The position numbers and the translations under genes were made by a program. A stretch of 64,000 nucleotides of DNA from Candidatus Omnitrophota bacterium (GTDB lineage Bacteria > Omnitrophota > Gorgyraeia > Zapsychrales > Fredricksoniimonadaceae), in the NCBI GenBank assembly GCA_903908245.1, contig CAIVRE010000017.1, forward strand, positions 133 to 64,132, in the 5' to 3' direction. Every line of letters starts with the position of its first letter. The stretch's first letter is position 1. Below, piece after piece: positions 50,910 through 58,150 of the stretch. The notes under the pieces were generated by a model. It saw nothing but the letters and a program-made list of their open reading frames with translations, was not told the DNA's origin and did not search any database.

Positions 50910-52127
50910 ATGAGAATATTTAATACTTTATATGCGATCGTTCTTTTCTGCCTGGTCATCCCTGTATTGGCGTTCGCACAGGCGCCATCCGACGGCATGA
51001 CCAAGGAGTTTTTTGATGATGGACGCGTGCGCTTTGAAAAGACTTATTCCGCCGGAGAGCTGAACGGCCCTTTTCGTGAATATTATCCTGACGGGAAACT
51101 TCTCAGTGTCGGAAATTACAAAGCCGGGCGCCTTGACGGCGGGTTCAAGTCTTACTATCAGAACGGAAACCTGTTCATTGAAAAAACCTATGTTAACGGT
51201 TCACAACACGGAATCAACAAGGAATACTTCGAGAATGGCAACATAAAGAGTGTCGAAGGGTATAAATACGATACGTTCGACGGGCCCTGCAAATATTATG
51301 CCGAAGACGGGACCCTTAAATATTCCCTGGAATTCCTCGCGGGCCAGCTTAACGGCGAGAGCCGGGAATACAATGAACTCGGGGTCCTGACCAGTATTGT
51401 GTTCTACCGTGACAATGTGCTTAACGGCGAAGCACAGGAGTTCAACGACCAGGGGACCCTGCATGCCCGATGGAATTACCGCAACGGCCTCAAAGAAGGT
51501 GAATCACGGATCTTTTATGATAATGGGAAAGAAGAATGGATCCTGAATTTCAAGGAAGGCGAGATCAATGGCCCGGGGAAGAAATTCTCCCGCAATGGCG
51601 TTCTGATACTCAATGCTGAATATAAAAACAACCAGTATAACGGCCTGGTCCGGGAATTTGCCGATAATGCCAAGCCCAGATCAGAATGTTCGTATAAAGA
51701 CGGGGTCAAAGACGGCGTCTGCCGTGAATATCATCCCAACGGCGCCCTTAAGATCGAATGGAGCTATGAAGCCGGTGAAAAGCAGGGATTAGCCAAAGAA
51801 TACACGGCGTCAGGCGTATTGTGGATGGAGGTTTCCTACGATAAAGGCAAACAAAATGGTATCATGAAAGAGTTTTATCCCAACGGCAAGGTCAAGAAAC
51901 AATGGGAGATCGTCAATGGCCTTCAGCAGGGAAGCAGTAAAGCATTTTACGAAACCGGTGAATTAATGAGTGAAGAGTTTTATCAGGACGGGAAGCTTCA
52001 GGGAGAATCCCGTTTGTTCAACAGGGATAACAATCTCGCTTATATCGACACTTTTGACCGGGGCGTCAAGATCAAACGTAAAGGTTTTGATGCCCGGGGA
52101 AAAATGGAGTTTGAGCAAAATTATTAA
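50910..52127 (+). CDS. secreted MORN-repeat-variant (YwqK-like) repeat protein
   Basis: 405 aa with a signal peptide. It contains about 14 tandem repeats of ~23 aa with the pattern G.....YY.NG.L...G.Y..G...G. Confidence 0.7.
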   Translation: MRIFNTLYAIVLFCLVIPVLAFAQAPSDGMTKEFFDDGRVRFEKTYSAGELNGPFREYYPDGKLLSVGNYKAGRLDGGFKSYYQNGNLFIEKTYVNGSQHGINKEYFENGNIKSVEGYKYDTFDGPCKYYAEDGTLKYSLEFLAGQLNGESREYNELGVLTSIVFYRDNVLNGEAQEFNDQGTLHARWNYRNGLKEGESRIFYDNGKEEWILNFKEGEINGPGKKFSRNGVLILNAEYKNNQYNGLVREFADNAKPRSECSYKDGVKDGVCREYHPNGALKIEWSYEAGEKQGLAKEYTASGVLWMEVSYDKGKQNGIMKEFYPNGKVKKQWEIVNGLQQGSSKAFYETGELMSEEFYQDGKLQGESRLFNRDNNLAYIDTFDRGVKIKRKGFDARGKMEFEQNY

Positions 52128-52138
52128 ATGGAGTGAAT

Positions 52139-54070
52139 ATGCCCCCGGAAATACCAAAAAAGAACATCACCCCCAAGAATCCCGATCCGCGTAAATCCTC
52201 GCGGACGCCCGGTCCCAACCAGGACAGCGGTGTCTGGATATTCTGGGTCATTTTATTTGTCATTTTCCTGATCATCGCGAACCCGTCGAATACAGCCAAC
52301 CCGGCTGTCCAGAAGATGACGTACGGAGAGTTTTATTCCCTGGTAAAAGATAATGACATCACCCCCAGGATCAAAAAATTGACATACAGCGAAGGCCCCG
52401 AAAATGTCCTCAAGGGCAAGTTGATGGACGGGAAAGAGTTCCGGGTCAATATCCCGCAGGATGACAAGGACCTGTTGAAACTTGTCCGCGATAACGTGAA
52501 AGATTTCGCGGTCGTCCCCGCGGAAACCTTCTGGACGCAATTCTTCTTCTCTTTTGTCCCGGTCCTTCTGATCATTTTCTTTATATGGTTCCTCGGCCGG
52601 CGGGGAGCGGAAATGGGCAACAAAATATGGTCGTTCGGCAAATCCAAAGCCAAGGTAAGCGACAAAGGACAGAACAAGATCACTTTCAAAGATGTGGCCG
52701 GTGTCGATGAGGCAAAAGAAGAACTTCAAGAGATCATCGAATTCCTGAAGGAGCCAAAAAAATTTGAACGCCTCGGAGGGAAGATCCCCAGAGGAGTCCT
52801 TTTGGTCGGCCCTCCGGGGACCGGCAAGACCTTGTTGGCCAAAGCAGTGGCGGGGGAAGCCGATGTGCCTTTCTTTTCATTGAGCGGGTCGGACTTTGTC
52901 GAAATGTTCGTTGGCGTGGGCGCTTCGCGTGTGCGGGACCTCTTCGACCAGGCGCGCAAGGCAGCCAAAGCGTCCGGAGGCAAAGGATGTATTATTTTTA
53001 TCGACGAGATCGATGCCGTTGGCCGCCAGCGTTTCGCGGGTATCGGCGGCGGTAATGACGAACGGGAACAGACGCTCAACGCGTTATTGGTTGAAATGGA
53101 CGGTTTTAATTCCCCCAGCGGGTTCATCCTGATGGCCGCGACCAACCGTCCCGACACGCTTGACCCGGCGCTGCTTCGCCCGGGCCGTTTTGACCGGCGC
53201 GTTATGGTCGGCCTGCCGGACATCAACGGCCGGGAGGGGATCCTCAAGGTCCATTGCCGCAATATCAAGCTGGATGCGGATGTTGACCTCAGGAAAATAT
53301 CCCAGCAAACCGTTTATTTTTCGGGTGCCGACCTCGCGAATGTCTGCAATGAAGCCGCCTTGCTGGCGGCACGCCGCAACAGGGAAACCGTCGGACAGCT
53401 TGAATTCCTCAATGCGGTTGAACGGGTCACTTTGGGACCGGAAAAGAAATCCCATATCACCTCAAAGAAAGAAAAAGAAATGACCGCCCATCATGAGGCC
53501 GGGCATGCCCTGCTCAGCCTTCTGATCGACGAAGTCGATACATTCACCAAAGTTTCCATTATCCCCCGCGGGATGGCGGGCGGCTATACGCTGACCCCTC
53601 CCACGGAAGACAAGCATTATTACACCCGCAAAGAACTCTACGGGCAGATGACCGTACTTCTGGGCGGGCTGGTAGGGGAAGAAGTGTTCATGAATGACTC
53701 CACCACCGGTGTTTCCAACGACCTGGAACGGGTAAGAGATCTTGCCCGCAGCATGATATGTTCTTTCGGGATGAACAATGACCTTGGAAAACTTGCGTTC
53801 GGTAAAGGCCATCAGCCGTCTTTTCTGGGGCGCGACCTGTTCCAGGAAAAAGATTACTCGGAGGAGACAGCGCGCCAGATCGATGATGAAGTGCATAAGC
53901 TGGTTGACTCTGCCTACAAGCGCGCAAAAGACATGATCATGGCCAACCGCGAAAAACTTGATCTTATCGCCAACCGGCTCATCGAAAAAGAAGTCACAGA
54001 CATTGAAGAAATGCGTACATTATTAGGATTGCCGTTACCGCCTCAGCCGGAAGAGAGCACCCCGAAATGA
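52139..54070 (+). CDS. ftsH: ATP-dependent zinc metalloprotease FtsH
   Basis: Two TM segments, AAA+ Walker A GPPGTGKT, the SRH, and the HEAGH zinc site are present. The ATG at 52139 has GGAG 5 nt upstream; the alternative GTG at 52133 is less likely. A basic/Pro-rich N-terminal extension of about 30 aa precedes TM1. Confidence 0.9.
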
Positions 54071-54936
54071 CCGGCCGTTGCTGTTATCAATTCAGGGCCA
54101 GGGACAGATCACTTGCCCTTGGAGTTCAAACCAGGATCATGGGGATCATTAATGCCACTCCGGATTCTTTCAGCGGAGATGGCCGCTTAAAGGCAAAGGA
54201 CCCTGTCAGGTCGGCATTGCGCATGGCAAAGTCCATGTGCACCGACGGAGCGGACATCATCGACATCGGGGGAGAATCGACCCGGCCGAATGCCTGCGCT
54301 GTTTCATCCATCGAAGAATGCCGCAGGGTTGTCCCGATCATTGAAGCATTGGCATCTTCGGGGATCGATGTTATTATTTCTGTTGATACATCAAAAGCCT
54401 GCGTGGCCAAAGACGCGTTAAAAGCCGGAGCCCATTTGGTCAATGTTGTACAAAGCAACGCCTTAAGCCGCGGATTATTACGGATCGTCCGTGACCACGA
54501 CGCCGGGATCGTTCTGATGCATATGCGCGGCACGCCGCGGACAATGCAAACCAAGTCGCGCTACCGGAAGTTTATCCCTGAAGTCCTCCGGGAACTGGAT
54601 CGCGCGGCCAGGACAGCCCTTGAGGCAGGGATAGAACGCAACCGGATGATCGTTGATCCGGGGATAGGTTTTGCCAAGACGGCAGGACAGAATTTTATGT
54701 TGATCAAAAGGCTTAACGACCTAAACACACTCGGCTTTCCGATCCTTGTTGGCCCGTCGAGAAAATCTTTTATCGGCACCCTGCTTGGCCTTGAACCTTC
54801 CCAAAGGCTGTTCGGAACGGTTTCGGCGGCTGTTGCCAGTGTGATGACAGGCGCGCATATTGTCCGGGTCCATGATGTCCTTGCGGTCAAACAGGCCGTG
54901 ACGGTCGCTGATGCCATATTATCGGGGGGGGAATGA
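54067..54936 (+). CDS. folP: dihydropteroate synthase
   Basis: 289 aa with IMGIINATPDSFSGDG and a pterin-binding TIM barrel. Its start overlaps the ftsH stop. Confidence 0.85.
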   Translation: MTGRCCYQFRARDRSLALGVQTRIMGIINATPDSFSGDGRLKAKDPVRSALRMAKSMCTDGADIIDIGGESTRPNACAVSSIEECRRVVPIIEALASSGIDVIISVDTSKACVAKDALKAGAHLVNVVQSNALSRGLLRIVRDHDAGIVLMHMRGTPRTMQTKSRYRKFIPEVLRELDRAARTALEAGIERNRMIVDPGIGFAKTAGQNFMLIKRLNDLNTLGFPILVGPSRKSFIGTLLGLEPSQRLFGTVSAAVASVMTGAHIVRVHDVLAVKQAVTVADAILSGGE

Positions 54937-55706
54937 ATTTCTTTTTCTGGTCCACATTAAAGCCGATCATTGAGATCCTTGTCCTTGCCTTTATTTTCTA
55001 CAGGGTCCTTGCTTTCTTTCAGGGTACGCGTGCGTTCCAGGTCTTAAAGGGGATGACGTACCTCCTGGTCCTCTTTTTGGTCGCGCAACTTCTGGGGCTT
55101 GACACCCTCAACTGGCTGCTGACCAAGTTCTTCACGATCTGGATCCTCGCGCTGGTCGTTATTTTCCAGCAGGAGATCAAACAGGGGCTGGCCCGCCTTG
55201 GCCGGGGGAACCTGTTCAACATCACCCTGGAAGACTCCGAGGTCGTCGCGGTCATCGATGAACTGGTGGATGTCTGTTTTATCCTTTCAGAAAAAAAGAC
55301 CGGCGCGCTTATTGCCATTGAACGTGAAGCCAAATTAAAGACCTATATCGAGAGCGGGATCGTCATTGACGGGCTTGTTTCTTCCGAAATGATCCAGACG
55401 ATCTTTAAACACGATTCCCCCATGCATGACGGCGGGGTGGTCGTGCGCGGCCAGCGGATCGTGGCGGCCTCCTGCCTGTTCCCGCTTTCCGAAAACCAGC
55501 ATTTGAGCAAGATCATCGGCACCCGCCATCGCGCGGCTCTCGGCCTGACAGAACAAACGGACGCACTGGCTTTGCTCGTTTCCGAGGAAACAGGCGATGT
55601 CTCGGTCGCCTGTGACGGAAAATTCATCCCTGTGACCGGCCAGGAGCGCCTGAGAGGTATTCTTAAAGACCTGCTTATCATCCATCCTGACCCGGAGAAA
55701 AAATGA
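54933..55706 (+). CDS. cdaA: diadenylate cyclase CdaA (membrane-anchored DAC domain)
   Basis: 257 aa with three N-terminal TM helices and a DAC domain (DGGVVVRGQRIVAASCLFPLS...GTRHRAALGLTEQTDALALLVSEETG). Confidence 0.9.
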   Translation: MNFFFWSTLKPIIEILVLAFIFYRVLAFFQGTRAFQVLKGMTYLLVLFLVAQLLGLDTLNWLLTKFFTIWILALVVIFQQEIKQGLARLGRGNLFNITLEDSEVVAVIDELVDVCFILSEKKTGALIAIEREAKLKTYIESGIVIDGLVSSEMIQTIFKHDSPMHDGGVVVRGQRIVAASCLFPLSENQHLSKIIGTRHRAALGLTEQTDALALLVSEETGDVSVACDGKFIPVTGQERLRGILKDLLIIHPDPEKK

Positions 55707-55804
55707 AACGCTTTTTCCTGCATAATATATCCCTGAAGATCATTGCACTCGGCCTGGCCATCATTGCCTGGATCTATGTGAACGGCGAAATCCTGAGACA
55801 ATAA
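55703..55804 (+). CDS. 33-aa micro-ORF resembling the N-terminal TM anchor of CdaR/YbbR (rest of cdaR absent)
   Basis: MKRFFLHNISLKIIALGLAIIAWIYVNGEILRQ. Its ATG overlaps the cdaA stop (ATGA) and it ends 1 nt before pdxJ. LKIIAL.LA...W.YVN matches the start of B. subtilis YbbR, which I recall as ...VKIIALLFALLLYVAVN. Confidence 0.4.
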   Translation: MKRFFLHNISLKIIALGLAIIAWIYVNGEILRQ

Positions 55805-55805
55805 T

Positions 55806-56525
55806 ATGCCCTTGCTTGGTGTTAATATCGACCATATCGCCACACTCCGTCAACAGCGCCGGGAATTTGATCCCGACCCGGTGAAAGGCGCCCTGATCTG
55901 CCAGGAAGCCGGAGCGGACAGCATTGTGGCTCATTTAAGGGAAGACCGCCGCCACATTAATGACCGGGATATTATCGCTTTGAAAAAAAGCCTGCGCATC
56001 CGGTTCAATCTTGAAATGTCCGTTGCCCCTGATGTTGTGGCAATGGCGTGTAAGGTCCGTCCTGACCAGGCTACGCTGGTGCCTGAACGCAGGCAGGAGC
56101 TTACGACCGAAGGCGGGCTGGACGTGATCAGGAATTCCAGACAACTCAAGACCGTTTGTGCCCGGCTTGCGGACAAGAACATCAAAGTAAGCCTTTTTAT
56201 CGATGCCGAGAAAGACCAGGTTGATGCGTCAAAGAAGCTCGGCGTTCCTTTTATTGAGCTGCATACAGGGCCTTATGCTGAAGCCCTTACAGCCAGGAAG
56301 CGCGAAACGGAATTGAAGAAACTGGATTCGATCACTCAATATGCCCGCAGCCTGGGGATCACGGTCAACGCAGGCCATGGGCTTAAATATCACAATACCG
56401 TCAACATAGCGCGGATCCCGGGGATGTACGAGCTCAACATCGGCCATTCGGTCATTTCATACGCGATCTTTGCCGGGCTCAATAACGCGGTCAGGGAAAT
56501 GAAAAGGCTCGCGTCCTTATCCTGA
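55806..56525 (+). CDS. pdxJ: pyridoxine 5'-phosphate synthase
   Basis: 239 aa beginning LGVNIDHIATLRQQR, with AHLREDRRHI. Confidence 0.9.
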   Translation: MPLLGVNIDHIATLRQQRREFDPDPVKGALICQEAGADSIVAHLREDRRHINDRDIIALKKSLRIRFNLEMSVAPDVVAMACKVRPDQATLVPERRQELTTEGGLDVIRNSRQLKTVCARLADKNIKVSLFIDAEKDQVDASKKLGVPFIELHTGPYAEALTARKRETELKKLDSITQYARSLGITVNAGHGLKYHNTVNIARIPGMYELNIGHSVISYAIFAGLNNAVREMKRLASLS

Positions 56526-56558: not shown

Positions 56559-56909
56559 ATGATCATCGGTACCGGTATAGATATTATCGAGATATCCCGC
56601 ATCCGTTCGTCGGTCGATCAATGGGGCGGCCGTTTCCTTCAACGGGTCTTTAATCCGGAGGAGATCGCATACGCCCAGGCCCATACGATCCCCTATCCGC
56701 ATTATGCCGGGCGCTTTGCCGCGAAAGAAGCGATCTATAAAGCCCTGGGCGACCGCATGGTCAGCTGGAAGGATATTACGATCATTAACGACACCGCAGG
56801 CAAGCCTTCCTGCACTGTCAAAGGTTTAGCGCCAGGGAAGACCATTCATATATCCATATCCCATTCAAGGCATTATGCGGTTGCCAACGCCATTGTTGAG
56901 ACGAAATAA
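56559..56909 (+). CDS. acpS: holo-[acyl-carrier-protein] synthase
   Basis: 116 aa beginning MIIGTGIDIIEISRI, with FAAKEA. Confidence 0.85.
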   Translation: MIIGTGIDIIEISRIRSSVDQWGGRFLQRVFNPEEIAYAQAHTIPYPHYAGRFAAKEAIYKALGDRMVSWKDITIINDTAGKPSCTVKGLAPGKTIHISISHSRHYAVANAIVETK

Positions 56910-57741
56910 ACGGGCGCACAAGAATGAGTTCGGCCACCTGTTGGTCGTGGCGGGGTCTCCTTCCATGCTGGGCGCAGCCTGCCTGGTCGCTTTGGCAGCC
57001 ATGCGTTCCGGTGCCGGACTAGTTACCGGGGCTATCCCAAAAGCATTGAATAACACTCTTCAGCGAAAGATCGCTCACGCGATCATGACTTTACCGGTGA
57101 CAGGCGCTGCCGGAGAAGTCTTCGGCAAGAAAGACATCGGAGTTCTTAAAAAATGCTGGCATAAATATACCGCAGTCGCTGTCGGCCCAGGGCTTGGCTT
57201 AAAACCGGCGACAATACAATTCGTCCGAACGATCATTGAGCAATGCCCATTGCCAATGGTGATCGATGCCGATGCCATCAATGCTTTGTCGGGCGGCCTG
57301 AAACCGCTAAAGAAAAGTCCAGGCCCACGGGTCCTTACGCCTCATCCCGGCGAGTTCTTTCGTCTGACCGGCTTAAAACCGGAGACGGACCGTGAACGCC
57401 GCCTGGCGGCAAGATCTTTTGCCATTAAACATAACGTTGTCCTTGTCCTGAAAGGGCGCCATAGCATTGTTGCTTCTGCCGACGGACGAGTCTATCTGAA
57501 CAAAACAGGCAATGCCGGAATGGCCAAGGCGGGGATGGGGGATGTGCTGACCGGGATGATCGGCGCATTATTAGCGCAAGGAGTTCCGGCTTTTGAAGCC
57601 GCACGGGCAGCTGTGCACTGGCATGGCGCTGCCGGGGACCTTTGTTTAAAGAATAAACATATTTTTTCTTTAACTGCGCCGGATCTTATAGAGATCCTGG
57701 CCAGTAAAAAACTGACGAGTATCTTGCATGCCGAATTCTGA
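56875..57741 (+). CDS. NAD(P)H-hydrate dehydratase (YjeF C-terminal / Nnr2 family)
   Basis: 288 aa with GHLLVVAGS...GAA.LA..AA.RSGAG and GDVLTGMIGALLAQG. The start is uncertain because it overlaps acpS by 35 nt. Confidence 0.75.
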   Translation: MRLPTPLLRRNKRAHKNEFGHLLVVAGSPSMLGAACLVALAAMRSGAGLVTGAIPKALNNTLQRKIAHAIMTLPVTGAAGEVFGKKDIGVLKKCWHKYTAVAVGPGLGLKPATIQFVRTIIEQCPLPMVIDADAINALSGGLKPLKKSPGPRVLTPHPGEFFRLTGLKPETDRERRLAARSFAIKHNVVLVLKGRHSIVASADGRVYLNKTGNAGMAKAGMGDVLTGMIGALLAQGVPAFEAARAAVHWHGAAGDLCLKNKHIFSLTAPDLIEILASKKLTSILHAEF

Positions 57742-58150
57742 GGCGATGCCCTTACATGATCGTATCATTTTGTCTCTTATCGGCTGTTTGATCCTGATCA
57801 ATTTTACTTATATCTTTCGTATCCTGCCTGCGGATCATAATTCCGCAGTACCGGGAGGATGGGCGGCGCCGCTCAAGCCATTCCTGAAAAACGTAAATGT
57901 CGCGACATATTATACCGACCGCTACAGCCTGGATCATCCCAATGACCCCGAATCCAACTATTTTTTCCAACAGACGCAATATACCCTTTCTCCGGTCATG
58001 TTGTTTATGGATAATGACCTTACACGTGAGATCATCGTTTTTGATTGTAAAGAACCGGGGTGTTATAAAGACCTCTTGTCAAGGTCCGGCCATAAGCCGC
58101 AAATAATATTCAACGATCATATCGGCGTGTTAAGAAAACCGGGGTATTAA
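57728..58150 (+). CDS. hypothetical membrane protein
   Basis: 140 aa with one TM helix (IILSLIGCLILINFTYIF) and no recognisable motif. Confidence 0.45.
   Translation: MPNSEAMPLHDRIILSLIGCLILINFTYIFRILPADHNSAVPGGWAAPLKPFLKNVNVATYYTDRYSLDHPNDPESNYFFQQTQYTLSPVMLFMDNDLTREIIVFDCKEPGCYKDLLSRSGHKPQIIFNDHIGVLRKPGY

Follow-up and report, generated by a model that had tools for sequence, protein, structure and literature searches.

A 64,000-nucleotide stretch of DNA from a Candidatus Omnitrophota bacterium (assembly GCA_903908245.1, contig CAIVRE010000017.1, positions 133 to 64,132 of the forward strand; hereafter the window) carries a 33-codon open reading frame (ORF) between cdaA, the gene for the membrane-bound diadenylate cyclase, and pdxJ. 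Judged by sequence and gene position, this micro-ORF (micro-cdaR, 55703..55804, + strand) is the orthologue of the membrane anchor of CdaR (YbbR), with all extracytoplasmic YbbR domains lost. Three independent lines of evidence support this orthology: synteny, a profile search with the peptide, and a converse search based on the ectodomain. In CdaR, which crosses the membrane once, the YbbR domains lie on the extracytoplasmic side; the protein contacts the N-terminal transmembrane (TM) region of CdaA (PMC8573169, PMC8316131, PMC12974146). The peptide encoded at 55703-55804 (+), MKRFFLHNISLKIIALGLAIIAWIYVNGEILRQ (33 aa), retains the cytoplasmic N-terminal stub of CdaR, its one TM helix, and an external tail of 7 residues. 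These parts correspond to a basic N-terminus (MKRFFLHN), a predicted TM helix formed by residues 9-26 (ISLKIIALGLAIIAWIYV; 55727..55780, +; Kyte-Doolittle mean of ~2.2 over residues 9-27), and the tail NGEILRQ. The start codon (ATG, 55703-55705) and the stop codon of cdaA (TGA, 55704-55706) share an ATGA overlap, and a sequence reading places a Shine-Dalgarno (SD)-like GGAG (55694..55697, +) within the 3' end of cdaA, 5 nt before the ATG. The TAA stop of the micro-ORF ends at 55804 and the ATG of pdxJ lies at 55806; with this gap of 1 nt, there is no space for YbbR domains before pdxJ. The 33-aa peptide has no match in Pfam (E up to 1) or NCBIfam. A preliminary description of the locus had reported the ATGA-coupled ORF with pdxJ 1 nt after its stop, the loss of the YbbR domains and the reduction of cdaR to its membrane anchor; all coordinates hold, and both the loss and the reduction are borne out by the evidence below.

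Longer forms of the protein are encoded in the same place beside cdaA. A 323-aa form with three YbbR stretches (RKY39881.1, Omnitrophota) occupies the slot X in the order cdaA-X-pdxJ-acpS-nnrD, a 142-aa form with one YbbR domain occupies it in ftsH-folP-cdaA-X-pdxJ-acpS-nnrD, and a 70-aa form in folP-cdaA-X-pdxJ-acpS-nnrD. A 138-aa form with no Pfam family on record (P0343, L036 2387-2803) directly follows folP-cdaA, where its contig ends. The profile of the micro-protein (micro profile) matches 23 proteins of 126-323 aa, in each case at the N-terminus, with the match starting at residues 1-8 and ending by residue 38. The YbbR family (PF07949) is present in 18 of these 23 long matches, while five are without it at E 0.01, and the ectodomain of the long forms matches a solved YbbR domain in the PDB (2KXY). 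No PDB chain matches the anchor profile, and NCBIfam holds no model for the long Omnitrophota CdaRs. For the converse search, the YbbR ectodomain of the 323-aa protein was used as query with its TM segment removed, and 19 proteins were returned. All 13 close matches with a complete N-terminus (308-327 aa) fit the micro profile at residues 1-33 with 26-50 bits; P0399 (298 aa), a close match that lacks its N-terminus, does not score. In a subgroup of about 130 aa (P0316, P0343, P0347, P0361 and P0362; 126-138 aa), the ectodomain differs by eye from that of other one-domain forms, and it may be a more divergent YbbR-like domain.

The match to the CdaR anchor also exceeds what hydrophobicity would give. 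When all 1,220 segments of the six-frame translation of the window were searched unfiltered with the long-CdaR and micro profiles, each profile matched the micro-ORF only, the former with 52.3 bits (next best 4.8 bits) and the latter with 77.6 bits (next best 5.2 bits). Several multi-helix membrane proteins are encoded in the window, none of which is matched by either profile. The likeness to CdaR N-termini proposed in the preliminary description is thus better than that of a random hydrophobic helix.

The micro-protein shares its features with CdaRs of different sizes. As in the CdaR/YbbR systems of Bacillus, Listeria, Staphylococcus, and Streptococcus, the gene follows cdaA directly, is coupled to it, and encodes a single N-terminal TM helix behind a basic cytoplasmic stub; adjacency to cdaA is likewise seen for the YbbR-domain proteins of Borrelia, Leptospira, and Chlamydia. 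With the full-length CdaRs of Omnitrophota it shares a homologous helix and the same syntenic slot. The domain-reduced Omnitrophota CdaRs (~126-156 aa with one YbbR domain, 220-252 aa, and 298-327 aa) carry the same signature, N-x-x-L-K-[ILV]-[IVL]-[AS]-L-x-L-A-[IV]-x-x-W-x-Y-[VI]-x-G-E, and are conserved on the same face of the helix; the operon is common to them where the downstream flank was recovered. These proteins keep at least one ectodomain, whereas micro-CdaR is the end point of the series. By the criterion of one to four YbbR domains (PF07949), micro-CdaR would not be classed as a CdaR: it has none, only the 7 residues after the helix lie outside the membrane, and nothing is left to sense the envelope.

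The micro-ORF is conserved far beyond the window. At least 15 contigs of separate metagenome assemblies carry a call for an identical 33-aa product, which lies between cdaA and pdxJ wherever the contig reaches far enough. Scanning related loci with one genome per species yielded 14 loci from metagenome-assembled genomes (MAGs), most of whose records are titled Omnitrophota, with CdaA 70-87% identical; a 32-34 aa ORF is found in the same slot in all 14. Three further loci (CdaA 62-65% identical) have slot ORFs of 45, 32, and 37 aa, so that the cdaA–pdxJ slot holds an ORF of 32-45 aa in 17/17 related loci (CdaA 62-87% identical). This confirms the conservation of the small ORF among relatives. 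In the 18-locus set made up of these loci and the window, cdaA is directly upstream in every case. The ATGA overlap is kept in 14 of the 18, the two genes are 4-13 nt apart in three, and in all 15 loci whose micro-ORF start overlaps cdaA, a purine-rich SD-like motif precedes that start by 4-9 nt; the gap to pdxJ ranges from 1 to 146 nt. Across the 18 loci, the proportion of synonymous differences (pS) is 0.78, essentially saturated, versus a nonsynonymous proportion (pN) of 0.20 overall and 0.12 in residues 11-29. Mean pairwise identity in the same genomes is 81% for the helix core of the micro-ORF, 73% for the DAC domain of CdaA, and 70% for its TM region. Neither the antisense ORF at 55343-55843 nor any of the remaining frames is kept open across the 18 loci. 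On this comparative evidence, the micro-ORF is a real, presumably translated gene under purifying selection, and neither a chance ORF, an assembly artefact, nor a decaying gene. The preliminary description had left a choice between a minimal regulatory TM peptide and a decayed gene; strong purifying selection and conserved ATGA coupling favour the functional peptide and lead us to reject decay. Three of the records (L021, L016, and L018) are titled 'Candidatus Elulimicrobium sp.' (NCBI: Patescibacteria group) and 'uncultured Planctomycetales'; since CdaA and the entire operon of these records group within Omnitrophota, the taxonomic labels look doubtful.

Conservation within the peptide is concentrated on one face of the helix, formed by N8, L11, K12, A15, L16, L18, A19, W23, Y25, V26, and E29. 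Scored per position in 239 short and 35 long members, respectively, the conservation is 88% and 97% for N8, 93% and 94% for L11, 100% in both for K12, 97% and 91% for L16, 100% and 97% for A19, 99% and 91% for W23, 98% and 89% for Y25, and 90% and 94% for E29, values that nearly coincide in the two sets; positions 10, 13, 17, 21, and 24 are variable. This conservation is periodic at 100 degrees per residue, the observed value being reached by 12 of 10,000 shuffles for the short members and by 53 of 10,000 for the long ones. The conserved direction is 75 degrees in the short and 70 degrees in the long members, which is the same face. As far as such alignments can tell, the pattern fits a helix that packs with one side on protein and with the other on lipid. 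From the positive-inside rule, with K2 and R3 preceding the helix, we infer that the N-terminus is cytoplasmic.

Our work defines a micro-protein family of at least 194 clusters at 50% identity, which is without a Pfam or NCBIfam model and is easily missed by gene callers. The family search profile was built from 18 members and is headed by a 45-aa one. It recovered 377 clusters at 90% identity, the best 120 of which are all 32-48 aa long. A HMMER scan of 1.84 billion representatives at 50% identity returned 194 clusters with E up to 0.001; these are mostly 29-83 aa, and 120 of the 148 newly listed ones do not exceed 100 aa. All members that bear an organism name belong to Omnitrophota. Existing names vary: NCBI labels family members hypothetical, and many members of 32-83 aa (P0121, P0123, P0133, P0143, P0145, P0151, and P0299 among them) are named 'YbbR domain-containing protein' in JGI/IMG without having a YbbR domain. 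In intermediate forms of 60-83 aa (L035 1644-1856; P0271, P0277, P0299, P0306, and P0356), the helix is followed by a hydrophilic tail of low complexity, for example ...NGELDKERRLSSREFYQSHSFKHSKNQ..., and a YbbR domain is absent; these forms may represent linker remnants or a sub-family of their own. One protein of 135 aa (P0284) looks chimeric: the C-terminal two thirds of a micro-CdaR come after unrelated N-terminal and middle segments, which by eye resemble a translation factor and MurB. It is probably a mis-assembly or a bad gene call.

We propose a model in which micro-CdaR is, with good probability, a single-helix subunit that is co-translated with CdaA, binds the membrane domain of CdaA, and has lost envelope sensing. 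Translational coupling at the ATGA stop/start overlap would link synthesis of the peptide to that of CdaA, and the N-terminus of the peptide would stay in the cytoplasm on insertion. The conserved face (N8, L11, K12, A15/L16, A19, W23, Y25/V26, and E29) would then pack on the three-helix membrane domain of CdaA, which is where full-length CdaR contacts CdaA in Firmicutes. There the peptide, as a constitutive fourth-helix subunit, could stabilise or tune the cyclase oligomer in the membrane. The cell-envelope input, thought to be delivered by the YbbR ectodomains, would have been dropped in this Omnitrophota clade. KdpF, CydX, AcrZ, and MgrB are single-TM-helix proteins of less than 50 aa, often encoded in the operon of their partner, which act by helix-helix packing and arose as small proteins. 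By analogy, micro-CdaR most likely works like these single-helix micro-subunits of membrane complexes: it has 33 aa, one helix, an operon shared with cdaA, and a pN far below pS. In contrast to them, it has no sequence relationship to any of the four, is a large protein cut to its anchor, and has a predicted partner. When embedded in the membrane, CdaA forms a tetramer whose activity exceeds that of the soluble domain more than 100-fold (PMC11686323). The loss of the YbbR domains would imply altered regulation of the cyclic di-AMP (c-di-AMP) synthase, as the preliminary description had supposed.

Several points weigh against this model. Five distant CdaRs (410-468 aa) match the micro profile non-significantly, with 6.9 bits or less, so the mode of interaction with CdaA is extrapolated from Firmicutes. 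The link to characterised CdaRs runs instead through the full-length forms of Omnitrophota, the YbbR domain, and the position beside cdaA. Six-frame profile runs found no YbbR-like segment elsewhere in the 64-kb window, a search that covers the window only, and a second, full-length YbbR-domain gene may lie outside it. The effect of full-length CdaR on CdaA is itself disputed, with both activation and inhibition reported (PMC10636490, PMC10117814), and the way in which CdaR regulates CdaA has yet to be clarified (PMC8573169, PMC10117814).

Among the other explanations, the one that survives best, though we consider it unlikely, is that the micro-protein is functional and independent of CdaA, either as part of another membrane complex or because its translation merely couples the expression of cdaA to that of pdxJ. 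The micro-ORF is indeed packed tightly between the two genes, translation through it could couple them, and the binding to CdaA is a prediction. A coupling spacer, however, needs no set amino-acid sequence, yet K12, A19, W23, and Y25 show 98-100% invariance. The long CdaRs encoded beside cdaA conserve the same positions and the same face, and linkage to cdaA is constant in the loci examined, whereas the distance to pdxJ varies from 1 to 146 nt.

Far less probable is a functionless remnant, in which the micro-ORF would be the pseudogene stub left by deletion of cdaR. The ORF is very short, without a match in Pfam or NCBIfam, and annotated as 'hypothetical' or not at all, and there is a precedent in Lactococcus lactis MG1363, where cdaR is a pseudogene (PMC10117814). 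In both cases the function of the CdaR ectodomain is lost beside cdaA; the L. lactis case is strain-level decay, whereas here a stub is under purifying selection across a large clade. Length and sequence are kept despite saturated synonymous sites (pS 0.78 versus a core pN of 0.12), the core is more conserved than the catalytic domain of CdaA, and the start overlap and SD-like motif are conserved, with hundreds of distinct clusters in the family.

We give hardly any credence to a -1 ribosomal frameshift, on an A-run before the ATGA, that would join the peptide to CdaA as a fourth helix. The window has GAGAAAAAATGA at its cdaA/micro-ORF junction, the topology would be compatible, and one contig carries a CdaA-TM-YbbR fusion ORF (P0410). 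Against this, the A-run occurs in only 2 of the 18 loci, the two ORFs are 4-13 nt apart in three of them, and the start codon and SD-like motif are conserved. The fusion ORF (P0410, L038 3501-4907) has 468 aa and comprises CdaA_N, DAC, a TM helix, and YbbR domains. It was found on a single contig from another lineage, after rpoA-rplQ and before a LysM/NlpC-P60 gene, and could be a genuine fusion of CdaA and CdaR or else the product of a 1-nt error in assembly; if real, it would be a clue of the Rosetta-stone type that the two associate. What looks like an in-frame fusion between the C-terminus of CdaA and micro-CdaR (P0250, L037 3001-3216) was rejected as an artefact, as it comes from a contig of 0.37x coverage in which ftsH, folP, and pdxJ are all fragmented. 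Lastly, the similarity might be that of any hydrophobic helix and the family one of unrelated small membrane proteins, given that the match spans only ~30 mostly hydrophobic residues and that distant CdaRs do not score, but this has next to no likelihood: no other helix in the window is matched by profile, the long matches among 1.84 billion proteins are YbbR proteins matched at the N-terminus, the search with the ectodomain alone succeeds in 13/13 cases, synteny is exact, and the polar and aromatic residues N8, K12, W23, Y25, and E29 are shared.

The distribution of the different forms suggests how the reduction came about. In a neighbour-joining tree of CdaA without support values, the loci with 32-45 aa forms make up one clade, and the loci with 323-, 142-, 138-, and 70-aa forms fall outside it, at a CdaA identity of 45-49%. 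This suggests a stepwise loss of the ectodomain in which the domain-less state became fixed at an early point in a large clade. That the 70-aa form clusters with forms of one domain may point to a second, independent loss; as the tree is without support values, the number of losses is tentative. The absence of glmM beside cdaA, noted in the preliminary description, holds as well, the downstream genes being pdxJ, acpS, and an NAD(P)H-hydrate dehydratase gene; a search of the window for the GlmM active-site motif, which is a weak test, gave nothing. Since glmM is missing beside the 323-aa form too, its non-adjacency is ancestral to this operon type and unrelated to the reduction of CdaR. Borrelia has cdaA-ybbR-acpS without glmM (PMC8316131), and glmM is likewise non-adjacent in Leptospira (PMC12974146).

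A more far-reaching idea, which we regard as possible and advance only tentatively, is that the TM helix is the ancestral and sufficient core of CdaR, an obligatory fourth helix for the assembly or activity of CdaA. The YbbR ectodomains would then be an optional sensor that was shed stepwise (three, one, none), possibly repeatedly, uncoupling c-di-AMP synthesis from envelope sensing. If this is true, a TM-only CdaR should partly reproduce the CdaR phenotype in model Firmicutes too.

The micro-ORF lies within a compact gene cluster in the order tilS, a MORN-repeat gene, ftsH, folP, cdaA, the micro-ORF, pdxJ, acpS, the NAD(P)H-hydrate dehydratase gene (nnrD), and two PMT_2 glycosyltransferase genes. 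From ftsH to the PMT_2 genes, overlaps or gaps of a few nt prevail throughout, except for 33 nt between pdxJ and acpS. CdaA (54933..55706, +; 257 aa) combines a TM domain of three helices at its N-terminus with a DAC domain and matches TIGR00159 (234.8 bits), PF02457 DAC (1.4e-39), and PF19293 CdaA_N (9.9e-09). The downstream border of the cdaR slot is pdxJ (55806..56525, +; PF03740 4e-97, 324 bits; NF003625 347.8 bits). The conserved upstream operon genes are ftsH (52133-54070, +), for which FtsH domains are on record in matching contigs, and folP (54067-54936, +; Pterin_bind 1.1e-74). The conserved downstream genes are acpS (56559-56909, +; PF01648 1.8e-18) and nnrD (56875-57741, +; PF01256 1.4e-57), which overlap by 35 nt (56875-56909), as called in most related contigs. 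Between tilS and ftsH, the window encodes a 405-aa protein (50910-52127, +) that consists almost entirely of MORN_2 repeats (154 bits) behind a hydrophobic, signal-like N-terminus; at this position, L024 has a 245-aa product without a Pfam match. A 140-aa ORF (57728-58150, +) with a hydrophobic N-terminus and no Pfam match keeps its position before the two PMT_2 genes in contigs with the same CdaA as the window. An Rfam scan of the window found two tRNAs only, with no other family and no c-di-AMP riboswitch.

A search of the literature found no account of a truncated, micro, or TM-only CdaR, nor of c-di-AMP synthesis in Omnitrophota. The finding bears on the open question of how CdaR controls the essential CdaA, in which the role of the ectodomain is unknown (PMC8573169, PMC10117814, PMC10636490). 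The clade presents a natural deletion experiment, in which all YbbR domains are gone and the helix is under stronger constraint than the catalytic domain of CdaA. This points to the helix–helix contact as a core part of CdaR function and singles out N8, K12, A19, W23, Y25, and E29 as the residues concerned. Going by the gene content of the 64-kb window, Omnitrophota with micro-CdaR would run c-di-AMP synthesis without the usual envelope-facing sensor.

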